A stretch of 64,000 bases of DNA from a virus. The translations under genes and the position numbers were made by a program. The stretch spans positions 1-64,000 of the IMG/VR virus record IMGVR_UViG_3300035396_000367; one strand, 5' to 3'. Positions 8,318-26,570 of this stretch are shown in pieces. Numbering within the stretch: position 1 is the stretch's first letter; the number at the start of each line of letters is the position of its first letter. The notes under the pieces are model-generated. The model had not been told where the DNA came from, did not search any database, and saw only the letters and a list, made by a program, of their open reading frames with translations.

Positions 8318-9790
8318 TTATGCTCCGTAAATGTGTAAACTCACTCCGAGACTTCTCGCTTTTTCCAAAGCCTCATCTGCGTACTTTAGTAGGAATGAGT
8401 ATGTATTTCCGTGAAGTGTGTGTATTGAAACACCTACTGACATACGCAACGACTCCTCTAAACCAAACGGCTTTACTACTGTATTAAACTGAGCCTGCAT
8501 TTTAGCAAATTTGTAGTTTATCTCATCAACAGTTTGAAGCCTATCAACACACACGATAAATTCGTTACCGGCAAGACGACCCACACAGTCTGTTGGATCA
8601 AAAAAACCTTTTAAGAAATCCCCAATTAGTCTGAAAAATCTATCACCGTAGTCGTAACCAAATTTATCATTGATAAGTTTTAAATTATCAATGTGGACAA
8701 CACCGACAATGAATAACTCACCTAGACGAACTTTTTTCTTAATGAAACTTTCAAAGTACTTACGTGTAAACGTGTTGCTTACAGGATCTAAGTCTTTCTT
8801 TTCCAGGTTAGCTTTTATTTTAACATCCTCTGTTATATCTTGAGAGGTCATAAGTATATTTATTACTACCCCATCTGCATTTAGAATAGGTGTGTGCGTT
8901 CTCTCATACATAGATGTTTCGTCGTTTGCAAATGTTATTTTCTCAACCATAGTATCAGTTTCTTTTTTCGCTATTGCACGCTCAATTGAAGCTGTACGTA
9001 ACTTTGCTATCTCCATATCCAGACGCTGGTCCCGGCAGTAATCGAAGTCATTCTTGTCCTGCATATAATTCATAAGTTCTTTACCAGGGAAACAGTGTAT
9101 GTTTGCTTTCGTGTACTTGAAAGTATTTACGTCCAACACAGCTAGTTGATACGGACTGTACGTAAAAATGCTACTCATTAGGTTCTCGCTATAAACAACT
9201 TTCGCGTTGTACTCACTCAGCTGCAGTGCCTGCCTCTCATTCTCAGTAACAGTCTTATACATACTGTCAGATATCGAAATCCTGATACGAAGAAGAATAC
9301 CGGTTAGAAAAAGGAATACAGAAAGTATTATTGCGAATGGCAATGCTTTTAGTATTTCAAAATCATACTTTACGTAAAAACCAAATGCTATGGCAAGCAT
9401 ACTGTATATTGAGTATGTTATGTAAACACGCATTGCGGATAGGGAGAACGTACAGTATAGAACTGAGATACTTATTAAAAATATACTTGCTTCACTCGGA
9501 TAGTCCATCGCTACAACAGTTGAAAACGATAACCAAGTTGAAATAATGAACATTAGTACAACGTTAACATGCCCTGCAATATTAACCCCTACTGATTTAA
9601 AACGAAGTATCAAAAAATAAATAACTACAAAAATACTGATAACTACCATTTTAACCGGAATAAGATCTATGTTCGCACCTGTTAAGAAAAGAAAAATGTT
9701 TGGAACAATAGTTAGTATCAGAAACATTAGAATCGACGTTTTATGATACGCCGAGTAGAAACCTGTGTGGAAAGACTCTTTTAAATTCAT
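8318..9790 (-). CDS. Membrane sensor with about 6 TM helices, a PAS/PAC domain and a degenerate GGDEF domain (AGNEF)
   Basis: Six hydrophobic segments; PAC-like motif THTPILNADGVVINILMTSQDITE; GGDEF-domain signature DPVSNTFTRKYF...HIDNLKLINDKFGYDYGD...GRLAGNEF...SVGVS...LLKYADEAL. Start probably ATG 9790 (ATGA overlap with the upstream small ORF); the ORF track starts at 9799. Confidence 0.9.
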   Translation of the reverse strand: MNLKESFHTGFYSAYHKTSILMFLILTIVPNIFLFLTGANIDLIPVKMVVISIFVVIYFLILRFKSVGVNIAGHVNVVLMFIISTWLSFSTVVAMDYPSEASIFLISISVLYCTFSLSAMRVYITYSIYSMLAIAFGFYVKYDFEILKALPFAIILSVFLFLTGILLRIRISISDSMYKTVTENERQALQLSEYNAKVVYSENLMSSIFTYSPYQLAVLDVNTFKYTKANIHCFPGKELMNYMQDKNDFDYCRDQRLDMEIAKLRTASIERAIAKKETDTMVEKITFANDETSMYERTHTPILNADGVVINILMTSQDITEDVKIKANLEKKDLDPVSNTFTRKYFESFIKKKVRLGELFIVGVVHIDNLKLINDKFGYDYGDRFFRLIGDFLKGFFDPTDCVGRLAGNEFIVCVDRLQTVDEINYKFAKMQAQFNTVVKPFGLEESLRMSVGVSIHTLHGNTYSFLLKYADEALEKARSLGVSLHIYGA

Positions 9791-9945
9791 TTTCCGCAAT
9801 ACAATGTTTCTATAATTTTATCCACAATATAAAAAACTGGAAACAATATTCTGAATACTATAATCATCCTAATTCTTCGCCAATATATTGCTACAACAAC
9901 GCTAAGTGAAACGTAAATCAAAAATATTAAAAATGCTGTTCTCAC
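9787..9945 (-). CDS. Unannotated 52-aa hydrophobic membrane protein
   Basis: GTG at 9945 overlaps the receiver-gene stop (GTGA), and its TGA overlaps the GGDEF gene ATG (ATGA). Translation MRTAFLIFLIYVSLSVVVAIYWRRIRMIIVFRILFPVFYIVDKIIETLYCGK*. Confidence 0.7.
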   Translation of the reverse strand: MRTAFLIFLIYVSLSVVVAIYWRRIRMIIVFRILFPVFYIVDKIIETLYCGK

Positions 9946-10394
9946 GCTAACGCCCTTCGGATCTGCTTGGTTATTGATGCTTCTATGAATTTAACTATCG
10001 AGTTAGCTTTATCACCTTTGGAGATGTACCTTACTTTACTCTTTAAAGAATATTCCCCAATCACCATGTTGTCATCCGTCATACCTGTAAATATTGTAAT
10101 GTCCCCACCGCCTGAGAATATTGCAGTCTCTGATGAACGACTACCTGACTCACTTAGTTTGTCAATCACTGCACTCCCTTTTCCATCCGGCAAGTTCCAG
10201 TCAATTATACATACGTCGTACTTTTCCTTGCGGCGTTGTAGGAATGAATTGACATCCTCGAATCTGTCGATTGAGTATTCAATAGAGTCTTTATACGTAA
10301 CCATTCTCTCATCTATCAGCATCTCAAGTACATCGAGAATAGATAGCGAGTCATCGACAAGTAAAAAATGTAATGTTTTTTTAATTTTTTTCAT
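9942..10394 (-). CDS. Single-domain response regulator (REC, CheY-like)
   Basis: FLLVDD acidic pocket, YDVCIIDWNLPDGKG (phosphoacceptor Asp), IFTG (conserved Thr), YISKG (conserved Lys); no output domain. Confidence 0.88.
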   Translation of the reverse strand: MKKIKKTLHFLLVDDSLSILDVLEMLIDERMVTYKDSIEYSIDRFEDVNSFLQRRKEKYDVCIIDWNLPDGKGSAVIDKLSESGSRSSETAIFSGGGDITIFTGMTDDNMVIGEYSLKSKVRYISKGDKANSIVKFIEASITKQIRRALA

Positions 10395-11818: not shown

Positions 11819-14698
11819 TTATTCTACAAACCTATCACTAAAATCAGTTTTATCGTAATCCCATATCTTTAGATACTCCACGGTTGTATTCCCACCGTAA
11901 TTTCCACTTCCAGTCCACCCTGCAAATGTTAGATTAAAATCTAAAGCAGATATACCTGTTAGGTTAATTGAAGCATTTGAATCAGCGTAAATAACAACAC
12001 CATCTCTATAATACCTTACTTTGTCTGTAGTGTTACCTATCCCACTACTGGAGTAGACAAAAGCAAAATGGTATAGTGTATTAGCTACAAAAGGATTACC
12101 ATAGTGTGCCCCTTCAGAGAATTCGTATACTAAGTCTCCTGCCGTATTCCTATGCATTTTATTTAGAACACCTGTTTCACCCGTATTGGCATTGAATGAA
12201 ACTTCCCAACCCCTAGCGTAATCATAAATGTCCCCTGGAGTACCTATTATAAAAATTGCCCTATTGCTTGTACCATCCCATTTCATCCAAAATTCAATAG
12301 TAAATTCAGAGCAGTTATTTCCAACTAAGCTTGTAAAATTAGTGTATTCTACCCTGTGTGTTGTTAAGTTCGGCTTGTAACCATTCCCGAATTTACAAGG
12401 TGAGGAGCCTAGTGAAACGTCACCATAGCTTACATATCCTTTCCCCACCTCACTCTGTGGCTTACTAACGTCCATTTTATTAAATAACACTAGCCCTGGG
12501 TACGCAATACCTGCATCCAATTCTGTGTTAGCATAATTCCATATTTTGAAACTACCTATGTAACCGTTAAAAGGTGATGTATTACTTGCAGAAATTCCTA
12601 TAAAAAATCTATGCGTAAGTATTGTGTTTGTTATATTATTTACTGAAGATGCAATCTGCGTTGCTCCGTTGTATACGCGTATTCTATCTGAACCTCCCGC
12701 TATCCCATTATAATTAACCACTACCTTTAGTGTACTGAAAGCAGATGTACTTAGAGAAATTGCTGTCGATATTTCATTAGCACCCCATTTAAAGTATAGT
12801 GTAGAACCATTTATGTACATGTAATAGTTTGCATTCACAGTTCCATTTTGTGTAATCCCAAATAGATAAGCAGCTGCCGCAGTAGGAAATACTACCGGTT
12901 TTATCTTCATCTGTATTGAAAACGCATTCCCTAAACACACATTCGGATATGTTACGTAGTTACCCACAGTGTTAATAAGTGCTGACACTCCATCAAAAGT
13001 TGGGCTACCAGTAACCATCCCGGTAGGTCCAACAGTAGGATTGTTAACTTCTAGTGCACTTCCCATACCGCTATCCAAAAGTAGACCACCTGTAGGCTGT
13101 ACGTATCCGTCGGTAGATGTGCACGAGCTACTCGCTATTAAATTTTGACTAGATAAAGTCGCAGCCGTAAGATACTTTAGCATATCCAGCTTCAAGTAAC
13201 CTGCGGATGTTAACACAACTGCTCTGTTTATTCGAAACGAATACTGTATGCTAGGCGTATCCTCTTCAAAGACTAACTGCAAAGAAGAAATGCTTTTTCC
13301 AACAGCACCTGCTGTGAATGGTATTCTAAATCTATACCAAGTGTTTTTTGCTGTTGGAGAAAGTGTTATAGCATGAAGAGGTTGCGTAGTGGATTGAACG
13401 ACCATAGACAAGTTCCTTGCAACTGTTCCGTCAGAAAATGTGATGTCTACGCCCCCCTGGTATACTTGAACAGAGTCTGTTAGTGACATTAAACTCACTT
13501 CCAATACATCCCCTGTTGCGACTGTTAGTGCCATCCCGCTTGCGATTGTGTAGTACGCGTAGTGATTACCCGCAGAAGCATTATTTGTGGCTGTTAACTG
13601 TATATACCTGTTGAACGATGGTCCGCCATATTTTAACTGCATCGCTGTAGGATCGTTCTGTTCAAGTAAAACTGCTGCTACCGCTGCGTTGCTCTGATCT
13701 TCGTTCATTGCTATGAAATTGCTATACCACCCACCAAAAGATTGATAGTTAGAACTGTAGGAACTTGAGTTTGGTTGAGCACCAAGAGTCTGTGACCCGC
13801 CAATTTTGTCCGTCCTAGTCCACGTATTCGTAAAATAGTCTGTGTATGTTTGACCATTTCCGGTATAGTATACTGTAAGTATAGCTGTTTTCAATGGGCT
13901 ACCTGTTCCTGGTATCCCGTCCTTATTCCAAGAAAAAGTTACCTTATACGAACCTAGAGCTGTCGGTCCGTACGGTGCGTTTGTTCGTAAAAAAGCTGCA
14001 CCTCCGTTTGCACTTGTCCACCCTGTGAACAACCCAGCACCTGTTATACCAGTTCTATACCCTAGCCCAGCATACGGACCATACGTTAAATTTGGTGTAG
14101 AAATGTACCAATACCCTTTGTAACCATCCGGAGCGAAGTCGAAACCGTAGTTCCCATTCGTGAAATGATTATCCGCAGTAGCACATGTATTTGACAAATG
14201 CCAAAGCCAGTTGGTCGCTAGTTGGTTTGGTGTTACCCAGAAACTTATCGTACCTTTTGCAAGTGACATTTTTCTGTTCATTAGCATGTGAAATATATGG
14301 TTAGAACCTGATCCACCGCTGCTGTCAGGGTATATTCGCAATGAGTCGTATGTTTTTGGAAGTGGGCTGTCCGGCCTCTCTATAGCTGTAACAACGTCTA
14401 GCGACATATCGTCATTCGAGTTTGAACCAAGCGCACCAGCATAATATGTTTTAATAATACTATTAGGATCACCTACAGTCGGCGATGCAAATGATTGGGA
14501 CCGAGGGAAATGAGTTAACTCGTTCCCTTTGCAATAAAAAACTACTTCAGGTGGCAACGAAACTTCAGATACTTTTTCTATACCGTTCTCTGTTTGTTTC
14601 CACTCCTCTTTAACTTTCGTTAAAGATACTTCATCCTGTACCCACTTTTCACGTACATCTTGAATACTGCTTATACCTCGAACAACCGTCTTACCCAT
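11819..14698 (-). CDS. Virion fibre/adhesin with about 3 LamG (concanavalin A-like) domains
   Basis: 959 aa, rich in G/S/T/N. Repeated LamG signatures GTISFWVTP, FSIQMKIKP...FNGYIGSFKIWN and FTIEFWMKW...YHFAFVY...YLKIWD. Confidence 0.75.
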   Translation of the reverse strand: MGKTVVRGISSIQDVREKWVQDEVSLTKVKEEWKQTENGIEKVSEVSLPPEVVFYCKGNELTHFPRSQSFASPTVGDPNSIIKTYYAGALGSNSNDDMSLDVVTAIERPDSPLPKTYDSLRIYPDSSGGSGSNHIFHMLMNRKMSLAKGTISFWVTPNQLATNWLWHLSNTCATADNHFTNGNYGFDFAPDGYKGYWYISTPNLTYGPYAGLGYRTGITGAGLFTGWTSANGGAAFLRTNAPYGPTALGSYKVTFSWNKDGIPGTGSPLKTAILTVYYTGNGQTYTDYFTNTWTRTDKIGGSQTLGAQPNSSSYSSNYQSFGGWYSNFIAMNEDQSNAAVAAVLLEQNDPTAMQLKYGGPSFNRYIQLTATNNASAGNHYAYYTIASGMALTVATGDVLEVSLMSLTDSVQVYQGGVDITFSDGTVARNLSMVVQSTTQPLHAITLSPTAKNTWYRFRIPFTAGAVGKSISSLQLVFEEDTPSIQYSFRINRAVVLTSAGYLKLDMLKYLTAATLSSQNLIASSSCTSTDGYVQPTGGLLLDSGMGSALEVNNPTVGPTGMVTGSPTFDGVSALINTVGNYVTYPNVCLGNAFSIQMKIKPVVFPTAAAAYLFGITQNGTVNANYYMYINGSTLYFKWGANEISTAISLSTSAFSTLKVVVNYNGIAGGSDRIRVYNGATQIASSVNNITNTILTHRFFIGISASNTSPFNGYIGSFKIWNYANTELDAGIAYPGLVLFNKMDVSKPQSEVGKGYVSYGDVSLGSSPCKFGNGYKPNLTTHRVEYTNFTSLVGNNCSEFTIEFWMKWDGTSNRAIFIIGTPGDIYDYARGWEVSFNANTGETGVLNKMHRNTAGDLVYEFSEGAHYGNPFVANTLYHFAFVYSSSGIGNTTDKVRYYRDGVVIYADSNASINLTGISALDFNLTFAGWTGSGNYGGNTTVEYLKIWDYDKTDFSDRFVE

Positions 14699-14701
14699 AG
14701 T

Positions 14702-15343
14702 TTAAACCACCACTACATTTAGTAATGAGTCCGCTGGCCAACCACTTCTAATTGTTCCGTTGACAGTCTTCAGCTCCTGGATTGTTTGTGCAGCCTCTAT
14801 AACCAGTGTCTTAGCGTACTCTATTTGAAAACAGGAGTGTACAAAAATGTTAGCTGCCCTACACACCGTACCCATATCTTCCTGAGACATATGTACCCAA
14901 GAATTATCAAAAAGTTTGAACATCTCTGCTACATACAATCCGCTTACTATTGCTAGATACTTTGCAGTTAACGTACTTCTTGACTCTCCATCCACATCGA
15001 TCTTCACTTTTGACAAGTCAGCTAATGTAACTTCAATTCCCGATGCTTCGTACTCCTTTCTCGTTACCTTTAAGCTTTCTAGTACTTCTCTCTTTACATC
15101 AGCTAATGACCTTTCCAATACGCTGTATGTTGCAACAACAGTCTTATTCAACGCATCAATCTCCCAAAGGTCTAGCGGGTTAACCTGAAGCTGTTGGTAG
15201 AACTGGTCCACTGCTACACCGGAATGCACAACAGGGTATATACCTATTTTTGTAAAATCAAAAGGTGAACCATCGAAACTCTTCTTTGCAGGTAACGAGA
15301 GTAGCGTTCTTACCACTACGTTGTTTTTTACTTCTGCGTACAT
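14702..15343 (-). CDS. Tail fibre assembly-type protein (DUF4376-like)
   Basis: SLADVKREVLESLKVTRKEYEASGIEV...DGESRSTL...FKLFDNSWVHMSQEDM...HSCFQIE matches the DUF4376 pattern; adjacent to fibre genes. Confidence 0.7.
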   Translation of the reverse strand: MYAEVKNNVVVRTLLSLPAKKSFDGSPFDFTKIGIYPVVHSGVAVDQFYQQLQVNPLDLWEIDALNKTVVATYSVLERSLADVKREVLESLKVTRKEYEASGIEVTLADLSKVKIDVDGESRSTLTAKYLAIVSGLYVAEMFKLFDNSWVHMSQEDMGTVCRAANIFVHSCFQIEYAKTLVIEAAQTIQELKTVNGTIRSGWPADSLLNVVVV

Positions 15344-15352
15344 AACTTACCC

Positions 15353-15787
15353 TCACTCAGCTTTATTTAGATAATACGCGTGTATTATATCTTCAGTACC
15401 CGGTGCTACCATATCTTTCCATTCTTCGTTTCCGGCATTTAAAGAATTTCTAATCGATGTAGCAGATATGTGTTCAAATCCTGAACCTTTAATTTCTTCA
15501 ATCTTGTACCCTACGTCACGCCCGTAGTATATACCCTCTACATCAGGTACTACCATTGCTGTACCGTGTATCCCTTCTTTCTTCATCCATAGCCCGATCA
15601 TTTCAACTCGTACACTGGCTGGAAACAATTCAGATGTGTCTCTCACAAGTATTAAAACAGGCAAACCCTTCTGAGTCTGCATAGACTGGATTATCCCTGA
15701 GTGTCCTTTATGGAACGGAACATACCTGCCAAGAAACATTATATGTTTCCCTTTAGCTTGTTCTTCTGTTGAATAATTCTTAAACAT
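15353..15787 (-). CDS. HxGH-family nucleotidyltransferase (cytidylyltransferase-like); candidate minimal ATP sulfurylase
   Basis: FLGRYVPFHKGH (HIGH motif), IYYGRDVG, ISATSIR. Start placed at ATG 15787 (GGAG 7 nt upstream; 8-nt overlap with cysC); the ORF track starts at 15832. Confidence 0.8.
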   Translation of the reverse strand: MFKNYSTEEQAKGKHIMFLGRYVPFHKGHSGIIQSMQTQKGLPVLILVRDTSELFPASVRVEMIGLWMKKEGIHGTAMVVPDVEGIYYGRDVGYKIEEIKGSGFEHISATSIRNSLNAGNEEWKDMVAPGTEDIIHAYYLNKAE

Positions 15788-16286
15788 GGATACACTCCAA
15801 TATGTATTTTTTAAACTTTTCGTAGGATACATCCACAGTCTCTACACCTGTGTCTACAGTTAAATCTGGATTAAGCGGAGTTTCGAAAGGTGAGTCTAAA
15901 CCTGTGAAGTTTTTAATCTCACCTGCCAAAGCTTTTTTATACAAACCTTTTGTATCCCTACCTGCACACACTTCAAAATTAGCTGCAACATGTACTACAC
16001 GGCAGTTTTGTATAATTGACTTAGCCAATTCTCTAGATGCATGAAATGGAGATATAAATGCAGTAATAACATTCATCCCGTTATCATTAAACAGTTTACA
16101 AACTTCCGCAATTCGTCTCAAGTTCTCTGTACGGTCAGCTTCACTAAAACCTAAGTTGTTACAAAGTCCTTTACGTATTTCATCACCATCCAGAACAACT
16201 ATATTTTTTATCTCTGACTTTAGCATATTCGCTAAAGTAGATTTACCGCTACCTGACAATCCGGTAAGCCAAAAAGTGTGTGACAT
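15780..16286 (-). CDS. cysC: Adenylylsulfate (APS) kinase
   Basis: FWLTGLSGSGKSTLA, LDGDEIRKGLCNNLGFSEADRTENLRRIAEV, AFISPF, RDTKGLYKKALAGEIKNFTGLDSPFETP. Confidence 0.96.
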   Translation of the reverse strand: MSHTFWLTGLSGSGKSTLANMLKSEIKNIVVLDGDEIRKGLCNNLGFSEADRTENLRRIAEVCKLFNDNGMNVITAFISPFHASRELAKSIIQNCRVVHVAANFEVCAGRDTKGLYKKALAGEIKNFTGLDSPFETPLNPDLTVDTGVETVDVSYEKFKKYILECIHV

Positions 16287-16296
16287 TCGTATCTCC

Positions 16297-16335
16297 TACT
16301 TTATAAAGTATACCATCTAACTTTATAATTTCCAA
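16297..16335 (-). promoter_or_regulatory. Sigma70-like promoter for cysC with an overlapping 14-bp palindrome
   Basis: TTGGAA (16330-16335), 17-nt spacer, extended -10 TGgTATACT (16307-16315). Perfect palindrome TACTTTATAAAGTA at 16297-16310. Confidence 0.45.
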
Positions 16336-16907
16336 CCGAAATATTCAATCTCAGTCTCGCACAACTGATTGACGATAGCTACAGCCTCATCCGTGTATAG
16401 ACCCATGTAGTTATATGCCGGTGTGACATTTAGACTTCGCATACTGACGGATGGTCGTAACATATTCCTTTTTTTTAGAAGTTCCCCAACCTCATCGTCA
16501 AGGTTATCATAATCTATTATTATATCTACTGTTTTCTCACCAGCTTCAGTCAGAATATACTTTGTCTGATCCATGTACATCCATCGATTTATCTCGGTGT
16601 CTGACTCCAACTTATCCTTCCGCAACTTTAAAAATGAAACAAAATCCTCTGGGAATCTTTCAAAACCTGCGTTCTTGTGTTTCAAAAAACTGTAATACGA
16701 CGCTATACGCCTGTAACAATTACGTACAACCGTAAATTTTATGTAGTGTTGATACTTACATCTAAGTTCCTCGGTATCTAACCAGGAGTGTTTATTCCCT
16801 TCCTCACGTTTATCACCGTCTAACAAACCTAGGTAACTACGTAGTGATGTACCCCCTGACTTAGGTATGTGTATGAACAACATTTTGTTTCTGTTAAGTA
16901 CAAGCAT
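16323..16907 (-). CDS. PAPS-dependent sulfotransferase (Sulfotransfer_2 family)
   Basis: 5'-PSB motif FIHIPKSGGTS and 3'-PB motif FTVVRNCYRRIASYY, with typical downstream motifs (DFVSFL, DQTKY, YDNLDDE, EIEYFGW). Confidence 0.9.
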   Translation of the reverse strand: MLVLNRNKMLFIHIPKSGGTSLRSYLGLLDGDKREEGNKHSWLDTEELRCKYQHYIKFTVVRNCYRRIASYYSFLKHKNAGFERFPEDFVSFLKLRKDKLESDTEINRWMYMDQTKYILTEAGEKTVDIIIDYDNLDDEVGELLKKRNMLRPSVSMRSLNVTPAYNYMGLYTDEAVAIVNQLCETEIEYFGWKL

Positions 16908-16937: not shown

Positions 16938-19900
16938 TTAGTCTACTATGTACCACACATCTCCGTAGCTACCACCCGAAGTTGGTGCCACAGTTACTAT
17001 GCTAGTTTTTGGAGTACCCTTCGGACCAACGATACCATCATGTGTAACTACTAGGTTACCGGGTGCAATCGAACCAGCGTACACATCTTTATTCTTTGCA
17101 ATAACAACGTCCAGTGTTGTACCTAAGAAAGCTGTCATGTATGCCGACATAAGGTAGTAATAGTCAAAGTACCCATATACTCCACCAAAGTTGAACCTAA
17201 CTAGCCCATTGTTTGAGTCACTTGCAAAGTCAGACCATGCACCGTCTACTGGTTTGAATCTTACCTCACCGTAACTGCTGGTAGAACCATAACTACTGAA
17301 TATATCCTGTGAACCAGAAGCACCCGAAGTTATCCAAGCTTCACCGCCGGTATACAGGAAAACACCATCGGTAGCACCACTACCTATAACCAAATTAGCC
17401 GGTGTATCCACATTACCGGATGGGTTTACTAGCGAACCATCATCCCCGAACTTGTAGGAAGACGCCTCCACCAACATTAGAGCCCAGTTGCTTGCGGATA
17501 CCGCAGGAATGTTTCCTATGTTTCCCAAGTCTATACTCCTGTAAAGACACCCTTTGTAGGATATTATCTCGTCTCTTCCGTAGGGTATAGCGACGTTCCA
17601 CTCTGTCAATCCCGTTAAAGGAATTTTTTGCCAAATAGCACTACCTATATCTGCACGTAAACATTTGTATATGTGTGTAGCGTTACCAACACTTGATACA
17701 AGGGTAGAGGAAGGGGTATAACCCTTAGACAAGTCATCTGTGACTGCAGGTGGTACCGGTACATTGTTTAACTCTAAACCAGAAGCAGTTATTAGAAAAG
17801 TATATACCTCCATGTCCAACGTATATGGGTTTTGGTACCCATAACCATAATCGTAATAATCACCAGCTGTAAAAGTCCCACTAACTACCTGCACCCCTCT
17901 ACCAGTTGTACCACCTTGTGAGAATTTTAACTTATTATCACCAGCCCATAGCTCTTTTACAAGTCCGGAGTAGTATGCGTACTCCATCTGTGTTGTAAGT
18001 ATGCTAAAAATGCCAGGAGATACCTCACCAATATCAGAAATAATACCATTGATGCCTTCTATAGTTTTTTCAACTGTTAGTGTCGCTGGACTTAAAACAA
18101 GGATATTACTTAGTTGCGCTATATTTGCGGCCTCCGAATCACCTTGTGTAGGAGTGTAACCAATCAATAATTTCTGTTGTAAACTATCGTACCGAAGTCT
18201 AACTACGTCAGCCTGATGTATACCGGATGTACCACCGTACACTTTCGCAGGTTTTTTTTGACTCGTATGTGACAAGATTGTCGTAGCAGAAAATGAACTG
18301 CCGTCCAAGTTAACCCTACAAACAACTAAGCTTGTCTGCAACGTAACGTCAATCACACCCGCTACAGCCGCAAAAAACACATAGTTACCGTCTGTCGCCA
18401 TAGGGACTGATGCGCGTAAGAATGTTCCTTGATGATAACCACCTAGATTGTTATCTGGAACTACACCACCTTTAAATGAACCAAGCGGAACATATACAGG
18501 ATGCGCTGAATCGGATACAGTTATAGAAGAACCGTCAAACGAAATACGAACTATGTGTACGGTAGCACCTGCAGCTGTTGTGTCCTTCATGTACGACATA
18601 AACACTTCACCGGAAGATACGTTAAGTAATTCTATACCACCTAGCATGGTCTCAGAACCAACCCCTGGTAATGGTACCTCGTCTAACGTAGTACCAGTAG
18701 CTGAACACACCCGCAGTAATACAGTATCCCTATCAACGCCTGAAACACCTACCAACAATATGTCACTGGATGTTATCAAAGTTGCGCGGACTACCGTATA
18801 AAACCCAGTAATTGTACTTAACAAAGTATCTTGATCATCGTATAACTTAACACCGTCAAGAGGATAAAAAACACCTTGATTTTTTGGCATGTCATGTACT
18901 GTATACGCTGCGTAAAGTAAGTACCCACCTGTGTATTGCGTACCGGGTATTACGCCGCTATGTACCACGTGTCCATTCTGGAGTATATCACCTTGGTGAA
19001 ACCAAATAGTGTAACTCTCGTAACCGCCATACTCGTGCTTCAAGTACCAGCTAACGTACCCATCCTCCGCCGTAGCGTCATACTCTAAATTATTGTACTG
19101 GTTAAGTATGTAGGTCATGTAACCTGGGCCTAGGAGAATCTCAAACGGATCTGATTCCAACGCGCCCATTAGTACACCGTACGTAAGCCAATCTGCATCA
19201 GCGACAGATGGGTTGTGCGTGTTTGCTACTCGTAGCCGCCTATTCAATAGAACAAGGTCACCTCTATTATACCCTGTGATCAATGCTATATCCGTTTTAC
19301 CGGCCGTCCACGTAGAGTAATTCTTTGGATCGTATATAACTGAACTCCCGTACAGTTTTACTTCTCTGTAAAATGAGACGTTACCGGAGTCATAATCCAG
19401 CAAATAGACCCTATCACCAGCTTCATTAAGCATATGCTTAGGGTACTCATTTATATCGCGAGGCTCACTCAGCAACTTTTCCATATGCGTGGTTGTTATA
19501 CCAAACTCTGTGAACCCACCTCCGTTACCACGACCTTTAGCTCTCCATATTCTTACACCTCGTTTTCGAAGCGTGCCCTCCGGCCTAACATCTGTCAAGT
19601 TCGCTATTTCTTCCAGTCCACCAACTGCCAACCAGTCGTAACCTGAACCACTCTTTACCTTAAAGAATACAAACTTATCATCTGCAGATGCTGCTAAAAT
19701 CTCCAGCCCTTTATCTAATGTCGATGTAATCGCAGGCGGTGTACCATTAAAATAAGAAACCATATTCGTATCTGAATATGTTTGTAAAAAATTAACGCTT
19801 CTAAATGGCGTTATACGACCTAATGGAAAGTATACCTCACCCATCCCAAAAGCACTACGTGTACCCTGCTTTATGTAGGAGGACGCTGGCCCTATATATT

Positions 19901-22900
19901 TCCATTGTGCAGCGTCGGAGTACTCAAACCAGTCTCTCCTTGTCTCAGCACCTGTACACTCGTAGACGTTCCAAGAACCATCAGCAAGATTATTTAGTAC
20001 TAGAGTACCTACTGTGTAAAATGTAGTTCCGTTTGTTCCGGTGTACAAATGTTCCCATTCAGAGCCTGCATGTGTAACCCACGCAACTGCAGGGGATGTC
20101 TTCTGCAAATCTTTAGGCACGTATGACCATATAGCCGCACCAGCTGTATTCGAAACACATAACCAGTAACCTAATGGCCAGATCCAAATTGAACCAACCT
20201 TATAACCGCTATTTACGTCGGATGTTACAGATGGTGACTTTGTAGAATCTGTATACGAATCAACGAAACAACTAACCCACACTCCAGAACCATTGTGTAT
20301 GAAAAGTTTTGCAGAACCTGTAGAGTACCAGAATGTTCCTACCGGATAACCATCCGCTTCATTTTCCATAACTGTAGGATCTGAAGCACTCTTTACAAAG
20401 TTATCAGATAGTGCTTTCCATACTGATGAGTTACCAGGAGTAGCACCCTCAGTGTACGTAAGTGAAACGTACAGTTTTTGACTGTAGTAAACAACTCTGT
20501 TTGATTTATAAAACTCGTCTGCACGCCACTCTGTTACAGTTGACTCAGATAAAGCAATCTCTTTTGATTCTGTACCTAATCCTAGTCTTACAACTGATGA
20601 ACTAATTTTACTTATGTCACCTAACCCTAACCCGGCTAATGATTCGTTAACTTTCTGCGATTTAGTAATATCTACGTATAGAGTATTGTTTACGCTGCTA
20701 TTAGTAAATAGCACTGCTTTTAACTGCGAGTCACTTATACTCAATAGAATGTATGAAGTTGTTGAAGCACCTATTTTTATCTGCACATCGCCTAATAGCG
20801 CAGCACTAGACCCTATATAGGTTACAGTCTTCATAGACTTAATTGTCTGTCCATCAAGTGAAACATCTACAAAACTTTTAAACTGAGTGTAGGGTGTGTT
20901 AACAAGAGAAAGATTTTGACCGTATACGTGAGTACCTATAGCATCCCACACGCTCCTTTCCGTACAGGTACCATTACCCGCATCTATGTACTCTGTTATA
21001 GCACCTTGCATAGCTCCCTGGTACGATCCTACGTGTCTTCCAAAGAATGCACCAACACCAGCGTTAAGTCCGAATAATGTGTATGGATTTCCAGAATCAC
21101 CCTCCACCTCATACACAAATGTAGCTGCGAAAGGAGCTCCATTTGGGTTCAATTTAATTAGTACATCTCTCCTGTACGATGTTCCGTATATCTTTTTCGT
21201 AACTATAAACGCTAAATCACCAGCACCTGTATTCGGGTGGCTAAATACAATCGGATTATCTCTAAAACTCCAACCGGAACCAGCTGCGTATGACGATGTC
21301 CCTAAATAAACACCAGAGCTTGTGTAACACCAAAATGTCGTCGTAGCACCATTTAAGTAGAAGTACAGATGGTTACCTTGCACAAAAAACCCACTTGGAT
21401 TATTTGGGAAGTCTGTGTTTGTAGTAACAACAACCGTAGACCCTGAAAGTATAAAAGTCACATGCCGGTACGACTGACCGGTTATTGAACAAACAAGTAC
21501 TTTTTTACCATCCTTAAACCCAAACGCTGATGCACCATTAACGCCGGATACGTTGTATGTTGTTAGAGTTGGTGATACAAAAGTATTTCCATAGTAAGCT
21601 ACCTCTACTGACGTTCCCACTGTCAGCTTGGATACACCTACCAACCCACCGTCTATCAAATGATTCCATATGTTTGAAACTGTTGTTAGCATAGGATTAG
21701 CATTCGACACGGACCACGTGTCTGTAGTATCCCCGGATATGTCTAAATACTTTTCAGTAAAAGCGTCCCAGTACGAACCATCTTGAGGCTGCTGATTTAT
21801 ATTATTAGTTTTACATCGCCAAGTAACTCCCGCGTATAAAACAAATTCACCCTCTGTATAGTTTAAACTGCTAGACCACTCTTTGTAAGTATTACCGATA
21901 GAGGACACTGCTTCTGAAATTAAATCAGCATAGTAAAACCTTTTCCAAAACGCATCACCTACCGAGGAAGAAATACATATGTACTCACCATATATGGAAC
22001 CTGTTGAGTAGCCTAATGTGGAGTCATCCTGTTTAGCAGGAGTTACGTATCTTTCTGATAAATCAGTTTGAAATAGCAAGGAGCTATCCACTGATTCCAG
22101 CTTTACTATTATGTCTAGATTCCCTGTGGATGTATTAAAGTAATTAACAGATACTAAACAGTCACCAATTGTTCCTACAGCTTGTGTCAACTCTCCCTTA
22201 TATCTTATCTCACCATCCTCCAGTACTGCCTGATGTAGTACTCGGTTACTGTCAGTATAGAGTATGTGCAGGAATGATTCACCTGTGGCTCTCTTTAGTA
22301 CGACCAGTTGAATAGATACATACGTAAATGAAAAATCATACTCTACGTAGGATCTGTCCGTATTAACTTCTACTATTTTTGATACGTTACTAAATGCTAA
22401 AAAGAATTTACCATCTGCACTGTTTGCAGCACCAGCTACTGGTATTGCGTCTGCCCAGTTTAACAAGTCTACGTATGACGGAGCATTTGTAAAACCACCT
22501 GTAGCGTAAAAAACAATTCTAGAATCAGGAGGTGTTGATGTAAAACTTTTGTAAGCAAATAATGCATTTTTCCCAAGAGAGGTACCGTCAACAACTGGAA
22601 CGAACTCAGTTGCTAAAGCAATATTACCAAGGCTTGTATCCTCCGTTATATCGGCCCCATTATTTACAGCGAATAGTTGAACTTTACTCTGATCAGAGTT
22701 CCATAAAGTTAACGCTGTGTAACCACTTTGTGATAATTTCGAACCGAGTATACTAAAGCTGTATGCGTACCTATTGGACCATGAGCTAAGTACGCCACCA
22801 GCCTGTACCGACTGCTTTGTTGCCCACTGTAGTTGACTATTTACTCTCCACAATTTTATTCTATCTGCGTCAGAAAACTCAAAATCAAAAAAGGATATAC

Positions 22901-25900
22901 CTGAAACATCATATTCCTCTTCGTACACAAAATTTCCTGAGAGTTTGTATATCGTAGTACCGTACTTTATGTAGAATATATTTGTATCAGCAATCTGCCG
23001 AATTAAATCTGGTAGAATAGAAACTGTTACACCACCCATACCTTTAAACGTTACAAGTCCTATGTTTTTGTTTAAACCTATTCTATTAAAATTAGAAACT
23101 GTATGCTTTAATGAGCCTTGTGCTATACTTACCCACACCGCAGATCCAACTGTTGCGTCCACGCAAATGAAAATACTTGTTCCGTTTACCCAGTGGACAC
23201 CCACCGTGTGCCCGTCTAACTCGTCATCATTGACTGTCGGATTACTTGAGGATGTAAAAACCGATGAACCACCAACCTTATGCCACGATTGCGAATAGAA
23301 TATGTAACAATCAGAACCGTAGTACCATAGGGAACCGTTTTCGTAAAGTGTGTCACCTAACCCCGGGGCTCTCTCCCCGTACACTACTTCATTTTTACCA
23401 TTAGGTATAAGCACTCCATCTTTTATAAAGTACCCTTCATTTGACACTAACCTTACAAAATATCCGTACAGTGGAAATGATGCTGGTATCACATCATATA
23501 GTGTATCGGATACAATAGACGTTACAGTATCAGAAGTAAATATCGAAAACTCAACACCAGGATCTACAGAGTTACTGTTTGATACTAGAGAACCTTCAAC
23601 TACTTCCGCTGTATAGTTTGAAACTAACTTTTCCTTTACTACTGCAGTAGTCGAAACTCCAAATTTAAAAAGTGAGGAGTGTACACCAACCGAAACTGTC
23701 TCCCACGCAGCTGATGTCCCAGGTACATCGGATGTGTTCTCCAAGCATTTATACCAACCACCGTTGTAGCTGAATACCCATCCACCAATCCCGGTACCGG
23801 AGAACGATATTACAGAAGCCTGCTGTTTTAAACAGTAAGCTGCACCTTTCTTGTACAGAACCGATGAATAACTTATTGGAATATCAGTCTCTACTTCACC
23901 CAGTATTGCACCTGTAGCTGAGTCATAATCGTACTCATAAATTGTGAACTTTCCATAGTACCCGAAAGCAATTGCGAAACCTTTATCTGTAGGTGCTATT
24001 GATATTTTTGACAACGGTACAGTATACACACCCGAAGCGAACGCAACATCCCAGAAAAAGTCTACATCTGTAAACATGTCCGATATTTCTGTCAACGCGG
24101 ATTGTGTTGGTAAATCCACCCTACCTGTCCCATCAAATACATAAGTGACAAGTGTGCTAGTTGAACCGTACAAAGTAGCTGCATAGTAACCTGAGTAAAT
24201 AACCCGCCCTTTGCTGTAACTACTTACTGCGTGTACAAGATTTGCTGTTTGTGCACTACTAATAACTGCACCGGTGTAATCAACATACGTGTAAGTGAGT
24301 GTGTTACCTAAATACATGGATTGGGATGAGTGACACGGAAGAATTAAAAGTATCTTTCCACCTACAGAATAAACACGAATCATGTCCCTAAAATAGCTAA
24401 GCTGTGCCCCATCTATTTTTGTTCCGAAGTAACCAAACAAAGGTGTACGTGTAGTAATAGTAGTTAGTGAACCACCAACCATTGTTGCAGTTTTCAAATA
24501 AGCATTGTCGTGTGTCGCAGTTACGAATAGTAAAAATAGTTTTCCATTAGCAACTGTTATATCACATAGAAAATCTGCGTAGGCAACAACCGTGTCAGCG
24601 TCTACTCCATTTGAGAAAGTCACTCCGGATACAGAGCTAACCCACAACCACATAGTACCTTCAAATAAGAAAGATCCACTAGAAAATGCTGTAGCAGTTA
24701 TTGAGTCAACCAGTGTGCTCGTCATCGAAACATCTGCCTCTATAGAGCTGTCGTTTTGAGAAACGTTTACCCACACTGACGCACCTGTAGCTTTAACTGT
24801 GCAGATATATACTACACCCTCTTCAGTAACCCAAATAGTTCCTTCATCATACGTATCATCTGTCACTGACGGTGCTACCAATTTATCAGCTAATGTAATT
24901 GCTGAAACCTTAACCCAAACTGCTGAACCAACTAGTGAAGAAGAACAGTAATACACTGATGACGATGTAAACCATAGTGACCCCTTCGCGTAACCTAAAT
25001 GCGCGTCATCGCTATTTGTAGGGTTCGAAGTTGCACCGTACTTATTAGTTCCTCCGGATATCTGTACCCACGCCGCTGACTTATTGCTAGAACTAACGCA
25101 GAAATAGATCACACCACGGTATACTGAAAAGTCCCCTGACTTATACCCAGAGGATTCGTTATGAGCTAATGACGGAAGAACAGTCATGTCATGAATTGCT
25201 GATGTAATTTTTACCCACTTCGAACCTGTTGAGTCTGAGAATACACACAGGTATGTAGCTCCGTTAACACAGGATGTACTCCCTACACTGTACCCATTAG
25301 ATAAATTCATAGATGAATCTGGGTACTTTTCTACGCTCGCGTATGTTACAACTGCTGCATGTGTAGACAATGCGTCAACACCTACAAACCAAATACTGGA
25401 TACGTCCTCGGATGGAAGAATATCTCTTAGGCTGTATATGTTTGGTGCTAACCCTGAACCAGATTTTTCTAAAGCTAAACTCTCTTTAGAGATAGAAAAG
25501 ACATTTAAGTCTGTGCTGAATATGCTGAACAAATTAAATACGTTACCGTTTTCAACAACTTCAAATTTTGCTGGCTGTGTGTTAGAAACTATCTCCTTTA
25601 CTTCCCCAATGCTACCTCGGTGTAACCCTACGTGAGCACCTTTCACCTTCAGGTTAGTTCCCTGGAAGATAATAGTACCAGATACAAGATTAAATGCGTA
25701 ATCTGTTCCTGAGAATAACTTTGCAGCTTCACCTATGTATTCGTCAGGGCATACAGTTTCAAGCAAATAGTTTACAGAAGTTTTGTACAAACCATTTTGT
25801 GTAACCATACCTCCGCCGGCAGGACCTATTTCCCCGTATAATGTTGTTACAAGATTAGCTTTTGCTTCTGACCCTTTATATATAGAGCCATTCTTAGTCA

Positions 25901-26570
25901 ATACTGCCGTAGCGTATGTACCTTCAAACGCAGTCCTGAAAGCAGTTTCATCATAATAATAACTTGGCGTACCTGTACCGTTTCCGAAATCAAATGTTTG
26001 AACACCATTAAAAGACTTATCAGCGAAAACACTCCAATTATTTTGAGATGCTGGCAACATCTTAATTGAGAAAACAGTAGGTGGAACACCAGGTACACTT
26101 CCACCTGGTGTTATTGGATCTTCTCTCCACGCTCGAACCGTACCCACGCTACCTGGTACCAACCCTTGCGCAGTTGTTAGATAAAACTTATCCCAACCCC
26201 AGTGCATTGTTGGATTACCCTCTACTGTAAGTCTTACCCACTCCTTACCGTCTTCAATAGAACCCATAGGTATCAAGTTAGCTGCTGTTGGATTTGCACT
26301 CGTTGGATTATTTAGTGGAGCAACGTCGTATGCTGTAAAATTTTCAACCGGAAAAGTAGCTATAACTTCTGCACCAAAAACTATTAGCACCGTTCCGTTA
26401 TCATCTACGTTCACATCCATGTTTACAAGACTCTTGTGTTCTGTCTCGTAAATTATTGAGTTAGATATTTCGACACCAGTATCCAGCCGCTTGCGTATAA
26501 GTCGTATCGAGTTACCCTCTATAGCAGCCGTGTATATAACTTCATTTTTAATTATTGTCTTAGTACTCAT
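16938..26570 (-). CDS. Giant tail fibre/adhesin (3,210 aa) with CBM5/12-like and PTxxDD-GY-W repeats
   Basis: Rich in S/G/T/V/Y. About 10 copies of P-x3-DD-x3-GY-xx-GS-x-W...Y-x-C...AVW and several W-x5-Y-x2-G-x2-V-x-Y-x-G modules; C-terminal APTSGGSYGDVWY; located in the tail gene cluster. Confidence 0.75.
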   Translation of the reverse strand: MSTKTIIKNEVIYTAAIEGNSIRLIRKRLDTGVEISNSIIYETEHKSLVNMDVNVDDNGTVLIVFGAEVIATFPVENFTAYDVAPLNNPTSANPTAANLIPMGSIEDGKEWVRLTVEGNPTMHWGWDKFYLTTAQGLVPGSVGTVRAWREDPITPGGSVPGVPPTVFSIKMLPASQNNWSVFADKSFNGVQTFDFGNGTGTPSYYYDETAFRTAFEGTYATAVLTKNGSIYKGSEAKANLVTTLYGEIGPAGGGMVTQNGLYKTSVNYLLETVCPDEYIGEAAKLFSGTDYAFNLVSGTIIFQGTNLKVKGAHVGLHRGSIGEVKEIVSNTQPAKFEVVENGNVFNLFSIFSTDLNVFSISKESLALEKSGSGLAPNIYSLRDILPSEDVSSIWFVGVDALSTHAAVVTYASVEKYPDSSMNLSNGYSVGSTSCVNGATYLCVFSDSTGSKWVKITSAIHDMTVLPSLAHNESSGYKSGDFSVYRGVIYFCVSSSNKSAAWVQISGGTNKYGATSNPTNSDDAHLGYAKGSLWFTSSSVYYCSSSLVGSAVWVKVSAITLADKLVAPSVTDDTYDEGTIWVTEEGVVYICTVKATGASVWVNVSQNDSSIEADVSMTSTLVDSITATAFSSGSFLFEGTMWLWVSSVSGVTFSNGVDADTVVAYADFLCDITVANGKLFLLFVTATHDNAYLKTATMVGGSLTTITTRTPLFGYFGTKIDGAQLSYFRDMIRVYSVGGKILLILPCHSSQSMYLGNTLTYTYVDYTGAVISSAQTANLVHAVSSYSKGRVIYSGYYAATLYGSTSTLVTYVFDGTGRVDLPTQSALTEISDMFTDVDFFWDVAFASGVYTVPLSKISIAPTDKGFAIAFGYYGKFTIYEYDYDSATGAILGEVETDIPISYSSVLYKKGAAYCLKQQASVISFSGTGIGGWVFSYNGGWYKCLENTSDVPGTSAAWETVSVGVHSSLFKFGVSTTAVVKEKLVSNYTAEVVEGSLVSNSNSVDPGVEFSIFTSDTVTSIVSDTLYDVIPASFPLYGYFVRLVSNEGYFIKDGVLIPNGKNEVVYGERAPGLGDTLYENGSLWYYGSDCYIFYSQSWHKVGGSSVFTSSSNPTVNDDELDGHTVGVHWVNGTSIFICVDATVGSAVWVSIAQGSLKHTVSNFNRIGLNKNIGLVTFKGMGGVTVSILPDLIRQIADTNIFYIKYGTTIYKLSGNFVYEEEYDVSGISFFDFEFSDADRIKLWRVNSQLQWATKQSVQAGGVLSSWSNRYAYSFSILGSKLSQSGYTALTLWNSDQSKVQLFAVNNGADITEDTSLGNIALATEFVPVVDGTSLGKNALFAYKSFTSTPPDSRIVFYATGGFTNAPSYVDLLNWADAIPVAGAANSADGKFFLAFSNVSKIVEVNTDRSYVEYDFSFTYVSIQLVVLKRATGESFLHILYTDSNRVLHQAVLEDGEIRYKGELTQAVGTIGDCLVSVNYFNTSTGNLDIIVKLESVDSSLLFQTDLSERYVTPAKQDDSTLGYSTGSIYGEYICISSSVGDAFWKRFYYADLISEAVSSIGNTYKEWSSSLNYTEGEFVLYAGVTWRCKTNNINQQPQDGSYWDAFTEKYLDISGDTTDTWSVSNANPMLTTVSNIWNHLIDGGLVGVSKLTVGTSVEVAYYGNTFVSPTLTTYNVSGVNGASAFGFKDGKKVLVCSITGQSYRHVTFILSGSTVVVTTNTDFPNNPSGFFVQGNHLYFYLNGATTTFWCYTSSGVYLGTSSYAAGSGWSFRDNPIVFSHPNTGAGDLAFIVTKKIYGTSYRRDVLIKLNPNGAPFAATFVYEVEGDSGNPYTLFGLNAGVGAFFGRHVGSYQGAMQGAITEYIDAGNGTCTERSVWDAIGTHVYGQNLSLVNTPYTQFKSFVDVSLDGQTIKSMKTVTYIGSSAALLGDVQIKIGASTTSYILLSISDSQLKAVLFTNSSVNNTLYVDITKSQKVNESLAGLGLGDISKISSSVVRLGLGTESKEIALSESTVTEWRADEFYKSNRVVYYSQKLYVSLTYTEGATPGNSSVWKALSDNFVKSASDPTVMENEADGYPVGTFWYSTGSAKLFIHNGSGVWVSCFVDSYTDSTKSPSVTSDVNSGYKVGSIWIWPLGYWLCVSNTAGAAIWSYVPKDLQKTSPAVAWVTHAGSEWEHLYTGTNGTTFYTVGTLVLNNLADGSWNVYECTGAETRRDWFEYSDAAQWKYIGPASSYIKQGTRSAFGMGEVYFPLGRITPFRSVNFLQTYSDTNMVSYFNGTPPAITSTLDKGLEILAASADDKFVFFKVKSGSGYDWLAVGGLEEIANLTDVRPEGTLRKRGVRIWRAKGRGNGGGFTEFGITTTHMEKLLSEPRDINEYPKHMLNEAGDRVYLLDYDSGNVSFYREVKLYGSSVIYDPKNYSTWTAGKTDIALITGYNRGDLVLLNRRLRVANTHNPSVADADWLTYGVLMGALESDPFEILLGPGYMTYILNQYNNLEYDATAEDGYVSWYLKHEYGGYESYTIWFHQGDILQNGHVVHSGVIPGTQYTGGYLLYAAYTVHDMPKNQGVFYPLDGVKLYDDQDTLLSTITGFYTVVRATLITSSDILLVGVSGVDRDTVLLRVCSATGTTLDEVPLPGVGSETMLGGIELLNVSSGEVFMSYMKDTTAAGATVHIVRISFDGSSITVSDSAHPVYVPLGSFKGGVVPDNNLGGYHQGTFLRASVPMATDGNYVFFAAVAGVIDVTLQTSLVVCRVNLDGSSFSATTILSHTSQKKPAKVYGGTSGIHQADVVRLRYDSLQQKLLIGYTPTQGDSEAANIAQLSNILVLSPATLTVEKTIEGINGIISDIGEVSPGIFSILTTQMEYAYYSGLVKELWAGDNKLKFSQGGTTGRGVQVVSGTFTAGDYYDYGYGYQNPYTLDMEVYTFLITASGLELNNVPVPPAVTDDLSKGYTPSSTLVSSVGNATHIYKCLRADIGSAIWQKIPLTGLTEWNVAIPYGRDEIISYKGCLYRSIDLGNIGNIPAVSASNWALMLVEASSYKFGDDGSLVNPSGNVDTPANLVIGSGATDGVFLYTGGEAWITSGASGSQDIFSSYGSTSSYGEVRFKPVDGAWSDFASDSNNGLVRFNFGGVYGYFDYYYLMSAYMTAFLGTTLDVVIAKNKDVYAGSIAPGNLVVTHDGIVGPKGTPKTSIVTVAPTSGGSYGDVWYIVD

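Follow-up and report, generated by a model that had tools for sequence, protein, structure and literature searches.

A CysC-linked mini-nucleotidyltransferase family of phages and SAR11 bacteria: candidate minimal sulfate adenylyltransferases

Sulfate activation is the probable function of a small nucleotidyltransferase gene that overlaps the end of cysC in a virus genome of the IMG/VR collection. The DNA analyzed here (the window) is the first 64,000 nucleotides of record IMGVR_UViG_3300035396_000367, which is 91.7 kb long and has an estimated completeness of about 49%. The gene encodes a 144-amino acid (aa) protein of the HxGH superfamily, hereafter the NTase, that is probably a minimal sulfate adenylyltransferase (EC 2.7.7.4) derived from the nicotinamide mononucleotide adenylyltransferase (NMNAT) and phosphopantetheine adenylyltransferase (PPAT) branch, feeding the adenosine 5'-phosphosulfate (APS) kinase CysC and a sulfotransferase. 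The reaction is a known one, as is the superfamily; the family itself is likely to be an unrecognized, minimal one of different descent. To our knowledge, textbook sulfate activation has two enzyme types, Sat and CysDN. A preliminary description of the gene, made from the nucleotide sequence and its open reading frames (ORFs), had proposed a stripped-down, non-canonical ATP sulfurylase, and this is still the best-supported reading. The functional case, however, rests on comparative context (fusions, adjacency, sulfotransferases and genomes that lack the known enzymes) and not on the GRD motif from which it had been argued, and the protein is not a truncated Sat. The module comprises the following features:

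16323-16907, minus strand: sulfotransferase, 194 aa, presumed consumer of 3'-phosphoadenosine 5'-phosphosulfate (PAPS); PF03567 Sulfotransfer_2, E 1.2e-10; phrog_3347, E 5e-9.
15780-16286, minus strand: cysC, intact APS kinase, 168 aa; PF01583, E 4.9e-54; TIGR00455, 193.9 bits against a cut-off of 138.7.
15795-15798, minus strand: GGAG Shine-Dalgarno sequence of the NTase gene, 7 nt ahead of the ATG at 15787 and within the cysC 3' end, as read from the sequence.
15353-15787, minus strand: NTase, candidate minimal sulfate adenylyltransferase, 144 aa plus stop; HxGH nucleotidyltransferase by the ORF list, an AlphaFold2 model and family membership.

The strongest result for the sulfate-activation reading is the linkage of this family to APS kinase. 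The 155 best 50%-identity cluster representatives were taken from an exhaustive HMMER search, and 54 of them are fusions, 42 in the order CysC-NT (NT being the nucleotidyltransferase domain) and 12 in the order NT-CysC, with CysC mostly full-length. Gene neighborhoods were then inspected with an iterated CysC profile at 162 loci (80 viral, 80 from species genomes and 2 from named phages). An APS-kinase-like domain is present at 146 loci: fused in frame at 73, within 400 nt at 61 and at a distance of 0.5-2.5 kb at 12, so that 134 of the 162 are either fused or within 400 nt. Sixteen loci have no kinase domain, and several of those are cut at the locus edge. The association with cysC, which the preliminary description had left to be counted, thus holds at about 90% of the loci, with fusions in both domain orders. 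The neighbor in the window was also correctly named: it is a genuine APS kinase, in which alignment identifies the P-loop GLSGSGKST, LDGDEIR, NLGFSEADRTENLRR, FISPF and the lid KGLYKKA.

When the NT domains are placed in a tree, the window NTase falls into a clade of 42 leaves with support 0.91; among the fused members of this clade, a canonical, lid-bearing CysC prevails by 12 to 1. The nearest viral relative of the NTase is a CysC-NT fusion of 269 aa that matches PF01583 at E 1.7e-46 and comes from record IMGVR_UViG_3300024265_000030 (L004; 180 kb, 96% complete). This fusion lies inside a glycan cluster (L004 1707-7061) that also encodes a GDP-mannose 4,6-dehydratase, an epimerase/reductase, two methyltransferases and glycosyltransferases; a search of the whole L004 record for Sulfotransfer_1, _2 and _3 found none. 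In a second large subfamily, found in SAR11, Xylella phage Sano and similar phages, NT is paired with a shortened kinase that keeps the P-loop, D.(V/I)R, LGFS.EDR..Q.RR and F(V/I)xP motifs, the 19-residue APS-kinase lid being gone. In the cultured phage Sano (NC_042344.1; gp34-gp35, L001 3148-4321), the 245-aa protein annotated as "kinase" consists of a lid-less APS-kinase-like domain plus NT. It is preceded by a gene with a NADAR domain, and 3 kb upstream there is an annotated "cysteine dioxygenase". Phages of Stenotrophomonas, Xanthomonas and Clavibacter have related fusions, and cultured test systems therefore exist.

Other neighbors of the viral loci point toward sulfation. When the 580 flanking ORFs were clustered, the recurrent neighbors were a DUF2061 membrane protein, a separate kinase, 2-oxoglutarate-Fe(II) oxygenases and two sulfotransferase clusters, the latter in 8 and 5 loci at positions -1 or -2. 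Matches to Sulfotransfer_1/2/3 occur in 18 of 50 related viral records (whole-record search; most records are fragments). DUF2061, a predicted membrane protein of 73 aa, is the commonest neighbor (27 of approximately 87 viral loci, mostly directly downstream; e.g., L030 5338-5559), and a search of the window's own record found none. A DUF2061 gene also lies inside the nodH-nodP-nodQ sulfation locus of the rhizobial genus Mesorhizobium (bioRxiv 10.1101/2022.04.26.489235). By analogy, DUF2061 may be a small sulfate-related membrane component.

Further context comes from five family-bearing cellular genomes: two complete Pelagibacter genomes and the metagenome-assembled genomes (MAGs) of a Woesearchaeota archaeon, an unclassified organism (1.2 Mb) and a member of the Bacteroidia. 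In none of the five was PF01747, the Sat family, found, nor a real CysD or CysH; PF01507 gave only weak N-terminal matches in proteins of about 525 aa, which are probably GMP synthase. APS-kinase or APS-kinase-like genes are present in all five (a full one in the archaeon, E 2e-62), and sulfotransferases in two, namely one Pelagibacter and the 1.2-Mb MAG; in the MAG the gene lies about 10 kb from the module. Because canonical CoaD, CoaE and NadD are encoded elsewhere in the two Pelagibacter genomes and in the Bacteroidia genome, the kinase-NT pair there does not plug a gap in coenzyme A or NAD synthesis. Sat and CysD/CysH were likewise not found in the window's own record, which covers only about half of the genome; this phage may obtain APS from its host.

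The family is widespread in SAR11, with 60 carriers among 81 sampled Pelagibacterales genomes. A gene for a 135-aa lid-less APS-kinase-like protein is followed directly by one for a 124-aa NT member, and the two occupy a syntenic position on the chromosome (e.g., L108 5552-6333, Candidatus Pelagibacter nBUS_30, NZ_CP172842.1); 90%-identity clusters of the pair have 11,617 and 12,599 members. SAR11 loci also lie near YeeE/YedE-type sulfur-transport genes. The genomes have neither Sat nor CysD, but contain sulfotransferase-like genes; together with the pair, this gene content hints at PAPS synthesis in a lineage thought unable to activate sulfate. Among 121 sampled Bacteroidia genomes there is one true member, in the Bacteroidia genome described above (G005), while four others match the N-terminal half only.

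The three motifs first noted in the NTase, GRYVPFHKGH, IYYGRDVG (residues 86-93) and ISATSIR, are all present as described, and their conservation throughout the family argues that they are not chance occurrences. Conservation was calculated from 296 distinct family sequences aligned to the family profile, in which G20, R21, P24, H26, G28, H29, R49, P81, G89, R90, V92, G93, Y94, S108, T110 and R113 are each at least 90% conserved. The motifs are located as follows:

15701-15730, minus strand: GRYVPFHKGH, residues 20-29, the HxGH ATP-binding motif with a conserved GR; G20, R21, P24, H26, G28 and H29 each at least 91%.
15635-15655, minus strand: LILVRDT, residues 45-51, strand 2 followed by the family-specific R49-D50; R49 95% conserved.
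15506-15547, minus strand: PDVEGIYYGRDVGY, residues 81-94, family signature P-(D/N)-I-x-x-(I/V)-x-Y-G-R-x-V-G-Y, which replaces about 30 NMNAT residues.
15449-15469, minus strand: ISATSIR, residues 107-113, the ISxTxxR motif of HxGH nucleotidyltransferases; S108 97%, T110 93%, R113 96%.

The overall family signature is GRxxPxHxGH … VR(D/N) … P(D/N)I..(I/V).YGRxVGY … ISATxIR in a domain of approximately 110-145 aa, and the window NTase has it in full, with all invariant family positions present. GRYVPFHKGH pairs in alignment with GRFQPFHKGH of the archaeal NMNAT MJ0541, and ISATSIR with SGTEIR of NMNAT and ISGTxxR of Sat. Two family-invariant arginines are new relative to NMNAT: R49, whose position in the profile alignment is held in archaeal NMNAT by the Gly of GIGSAQ, and R90 within YGRxVGY, where NMNAT reads YSGN. 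Within residues 89-94 conservation is very high (G89 98%, R90 97%, V92 95%, G93 98%, Y94 96%), but position 91 is variable (D 36%, G 42%, K 9%), and the Asp of "GRD" is no family feature. The NTase also matches positions 131-229 of phrog_10255 "kinase" (E 3.8e-8), the N-terminal half of which matches cysC. By these sequence relationships, the NTase belongs to an unnamed CysC-linked mini-nucleotidyltransferase family that is part of phrog_10255.

Sources name members "cytidyltransferase", as the preliminary description had expected, and also "phosphopantetheine adenylyltransferase", "FAD synthase" and "AAA family ATPase", with fusions called "adenylyl-sulfate kinase". Structure neighbors in the ESM Atlas are APS_kinase plus CTP_transf_like clusters. 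Two clusters of fused forms there are auto-named "Sulfate adenylyltransferase/adenylylsulfate kinase (Met3)", and the sulfurylase idea is therefore latent in some automatic labels.

Several observations weigh against sulfate as the substrate. A profile of 69 stand-alone homologues finds its best matches in the PDB among archaeal NMNATs (1f9a, MJ0541, E 3e-18), and Foldseek on the AlphaFold2 model, a single domain with a mean pLDDT of 92 and a pTM of 0.85, also returns archaeal NMNATs first (TM about 0.7), followed by PPAT and NadD. Sat is distant in the same search (E about 1e-3, TM 0.5-0.6), while VIA-align ties PPAT and NMNAT at Z 14.5-14.7. The window NTase has no match to PF01747 at E <= 0.1, and the QxRN sulfate/APS-binding motif that precedes HxxH in Sat is not present. 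At that site the window NTase reads FLGRYVPFHKGH and the family consensus GR(W/Y)QPFHxGH, compared with FQTRNPMHRxH at Sat loci. Many family members are paired with the lid-less APS-kinase-like domain, for which APS is only a putative substrate, and some relatives (e.g., L084) lie in nucleotide-sugar clusters without an adjacent kinase. Two thirds of the 50 related viral records, most of them fragments, lack a sulfotransferase match. SAR11 is known for having no sulfate assimilation, and the absence of Sat and CysD from its genomes is thus to be expected in any case. Finally, a literature search found no paper describing or assaying such a mini enzyme family or phage PAPS modules.

Taken together, the profile and model comparisons assign the NTase to the NMNAT/PPAT branch within the HxGH superfamily, as a reduced member. 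This agrees with the original remark that the N-terminal motif is nearer to NMNAT, and the comparison of a predicted structure with Sat and NadM, which had been recommended, came out close for NMNAT and remote for Sat. Database matches to single families are poor. Pfam gave sub-threshold matches only (HIGH_NTase1, Citrate_ly_lig and CTP_transf_like); in NCBIfam, TIGR01527 scored 26.1 bits against a cut-off of 181.2 and NF002243 32.5 against 127, over residues 17-81 only, and the CoaD model (TIGR01510) was not among the matches at E <= 0.1. The alignment to 1f9a falls in two parts, family positions 12-82 with chain residues 4-76 and 91-137 with 110-154. About 30 NMNAT residues (MJ0541 77-109) thus have no counterpart in the family, and the NTase lacks the complete NadM/archaeal NMNAT core, the helix-strand-helix between "DIE" and "GYEV" being skipped. 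In archaeal NMNAT the missing segment forms the NMN (nicotinamide riboside) pocket.

A shortened Sat was considered for the NTase and rejected, since profile and fold place it with NMNAT and PPAT. It is a single domain of 144 aa, compared with about 380-400 aa and an N-terminal PUA-like domain in Sat. Two close relatives do touch the Sat family: P0002 scores 29.1 bits on PF01747 (cut-off 24.3) over residues 13-68 only, which is the strand-1-to-strand-2 region, and P0012 scores 23.7 bits. An hhalign comparison with Sat domains from eight alphaproteobacterial loci (one wrong-frame row included) pairs FHKGH of the NTase with HRAH (HRxH) of Sat and ISATSIR with ISGTxxR, so that HxxH and ISGTxxR both have counterparts. 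The same comparison puts GRDHAG of Sat at three competing places (strand 3/PDIE, VRD after strand 2, and YGR after strand 4), all with low probability, and the YGR-VGRDHAG pairing appears only in a sub-optimal alternative alignment. The argument for a Sat-like enzyme from the GRD motif is therefore weak, as its Asp is not conserved and GRDHAG is placed inconsistently. From topology alone, a G-x-D-type loop after strand 4 is a possible GRDHAG equivalent.

That archaeal NMNATs lead both the sequence and the fold comparisons, together with the NMNAT-like GRxxPFHKGH motif, raises the alternative of an NMN or nicotinate mononucleotide adenylyltransferase, a phage NAD-salvage gene next to cysC by accident; the fused form of phage Sano, adjoining a NADAR-domain gene, would suit such a role. 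Nonetheless, this alternative appears very unlikely given scores far below the family cut-offs, the missing counterpart of MJ0541 77-109, APS kinase linkage at about 90% of loci with both fusion orders, and NadD in Pelagibacter and Bacteroidia genomes that also bear the family. Kinase plus HxGH-nucleotidyltransferase pairs such as RfaE, COASY and NadR are a common design in nature, and the VIA-align tie between PPAT and NMNAT (Z about 14.5) and the L004 and L084 genes in nucleotide-sugar and glycosyltransferase clusters lend something to a PPAT-like or sugar/polyol-phosphate nucleotidyltransferase. Such an enzyme would activate a phosphorylated glycan building block, and the partner kinase would phosphorylate the nucleotide product or its precursor. 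We regard this as improbable. The partner in the window and its clade is a full equivalog-level APS kinase, APS-binding motifs are kept even in the short kinases, and host genomes have canonical CoaD and CoaE. Moreover, the segments that form the pocket have been lost and not built out, as suits a very small acceptor, and the glycan contexts are explained equally well by sulfated glycans.

A very small acceptor need not be sulfate. The sequence holds nothing that discriminates between small oxyanions, and selenate, sulfite, thiosulfate, phosphite or the like might be adenylylated by the same chemistry, a thought to which the YeeE/YedE-type genes near SAR11 loci give some substance; yet the recurrent downstream partners are PAPS-using sulfotransferases and the window kinase is an equivalog-level CysC, which makes another oxyanion a quite remote prospect. 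There is, lastly, the direction of the reaction to consider. Fusion and adjacency reveal coupling but no direction, and ATP sulfurylase chemistry is reversible with an equilibrium that favors ATP formation. The NTase could accordingly be an accessory of CysC that does not form APS, either a regulatory or scaffolding subunit or a consumer of APS or PAPS (for example, in reverse, forming ATP). However, every catalytic motif expected of an active HxGH transferase is invariant in the family, and APS has no other origin in genomes that combine the pair with sulfotransferases; of the alternatives considered, we hold this one the least probable.

If the NTase is a sulfate adenylyltransferase, a mechanism can be proposed. 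In the HxGH superfamily ATP is bound by the HxGH loop and the ISxTxxR helix, and ATP would here be bound by the HxGH loop, R21 and the ISATxIR helix. The acceptor pocket, shortened by loss of the NMNAT helices, would be lined by R49 and R90, which we infer to hold sulfate, a small oxyanion, for attack on the α-phosphate of ATP to yield APS and pyrophosphate. The ATP sulfurylase reaction is thermodynamically uphill. CysC, the translation of which is coupled to that of the NTase, would turn the APS into PAPS and so pull the unfavorable first reaction forward, and host pyrophosphatase would remove the pyrophosphate. The adjacent Sulfotransfer_2-type phage enzyme would then use PAPS, probably on a carbohydrate, since the module lies among tail-fiber genes; sulfation of a virion or cell-surface glycan is speculative. 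Sulfate as substrate, the roles of R49 and R90 and the sulfotransferase acceptor are thus elements of a model drawn from the comparisons above.

The three genes of the module form a compact block. Nearly all genes of the window are on the minus strand, and the sulfotransferase, cysC and NTase genes share it in an operon-like arrangement, with the sulfotransferase one gene upstream of cysC and carrying PKSGGTS, a 5'-phosphosulfate-binding motif. The ATG of the NTase at 15787 lies inside the last codons of cysC (…CAT GTT TAA), giving an overlap of 8 nt (15780-15787, ATGTTTAA). Because this ATG follows GGAG by 7 nt within the end of cysC, the overlap and the translational coupling are real, and the 144-aa ORF at 15353-15787 stands as first drawn. 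A 159-aa ORF is also listed, which reads in this frame from an ATG further upstream (15832); that start was rejected, as it has no ribosome site and homologues leave the extension uncovered. The 144-aa start is preferred because homologues align from about residue 14 of that form. A predicted complex of the window CysC and NTase scored 0.00 and was used as evidence for neither side. The three-gene block, used as a DNA query against a phage collection, gave no match.

The three tightly packed genes are flanked by a 3210-aa ORF (16938-26570) on one side and by two fiber-like genes on the other, and the module thus sits among fiber genes. The two fiber-like genes are:

14702-15343, minus strand: DUF4376 tail-fiber-like gene, directly downstream of the NTase gene; PF14301, E 1.4e-9; phrog_10508 "tail fiber protein".
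11819-14698: LamG-type fiber-like protein, 959 aa, part of the same fiber-gene flank.

Other features of the window deserve mention. A single frame of at least 6718 aa (ATG at 63715) occupies 43559-64000 on the minus strand and has not closed where the window ends, which gives 6813 codons. Next come ORFs of 2798, 1462, 711 and 3210 aa (including 33114-41510, 28726-33114 and 16938-26570). A Pfam search of the giant neighboring proteins of 3210, 1462, 711 and 684 aa gave no match. This run of giant, unannotatable and presumably fiber-like genes is unusually long for a phage. At 8318-10394 (minus strand) lies a gene for a 493-aa multi-pass membrane protein with a C-terminal GGDEF-like domain that has a degenerate RLAGNEF signature, and just upstream of it is a stand-alone receiver-like gene of 150 aa; both are located between the fiber genes and small membrane-protein genes.

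We would give about an even chance to a broader proposal drawn from these sequence comparisons: that the family represents a third type of ATP sulfurylase with an evolutionary origin of its own, NMNAT-derived and of approximately 120-145 aa; that with canonical or lid-less APS kinases it makes up the smallest known PAPS synthase; that it is a sulfation module spread by phages; and that in most sampled SAR11 genomes it provides a route to PAPS that has been overlooked and that serves sulfation, not assimilation. If true, a third type of ATP sulfurylase, one third the size of Sat, has been hidden under "cytidyltransferase" labels. APS and PAPS synthesis would then be possible in genomes and viruses that are at present counted as having no ATP sulfurylase, and sulfur metabolism would be read differently from genomes. 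Phages could carry a self-sufficient three-gene sulfation kit, whose location among fiber genes would suggest sulfated glycans on the virion or the surface of the infected cell. The finding would also be relevant to how the most abundant marine bacteria handle sulfur, and would provide a very small PAPS-regeneration enzyme for biotechnology.

Among known systems, the archaeal/NadM NMNATs (MJ0541, 1f9a; Methanothermobacter thermautotrophicus, 1ej2; TIGR01527) are nearest to the NTase by profile, Foldseek and VIA-align (Z 14.5, root-mean-square deviation 2.9 over 129 residues). The two have in common GRxxPFHxGH, SxTxIR and a C-terminal "W..lV" helix. They differ in that the NTase lacks the two helices around strand 4 (the MJ0541 77-109 segment), has VRD(T) for GSAQ and YGRxVGY for YSGN with the two invariant arginines added, falls far below the NMNAT family cut-off, and is tied in genomes to APS kinase and not to NAD genes. 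CoaD (PPAT) is a minimal single-domain HxGH fold of similar size (VIA Z 14.7 to the NTase), and the pathway logic of CoaD plus CoaE resembles that of NTase plus CysC, with a P-loop kinase acting on the adenosine 3'-OH after an adenylyltransferase. Here, however, the partner kinase is of the APS-kinase type, and family-bearing genomes own a separate CoaD and CoaE.

Sat (PF01747; e.g., PDB 8a8d) is of the same HxGH superfamily and catalyzes the reaction proposed for the NTase. The fusions with APS kinase in both orders are like those of animal PAPSS (kinase first) and of fungal and bacterial Sat-CysC (sulfurylase first). At about 140 aa, without the PUA-like domain and QxRN, the NTase nevertheless has only distant structural similarity to Sat. 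CysDN catalyzes the same proposed reaction and occupies the same place upstream of CysC, but its fold, a PP-loop ATP pyrophosphatase plus a GTPase, is unrelated to that of the NTase.

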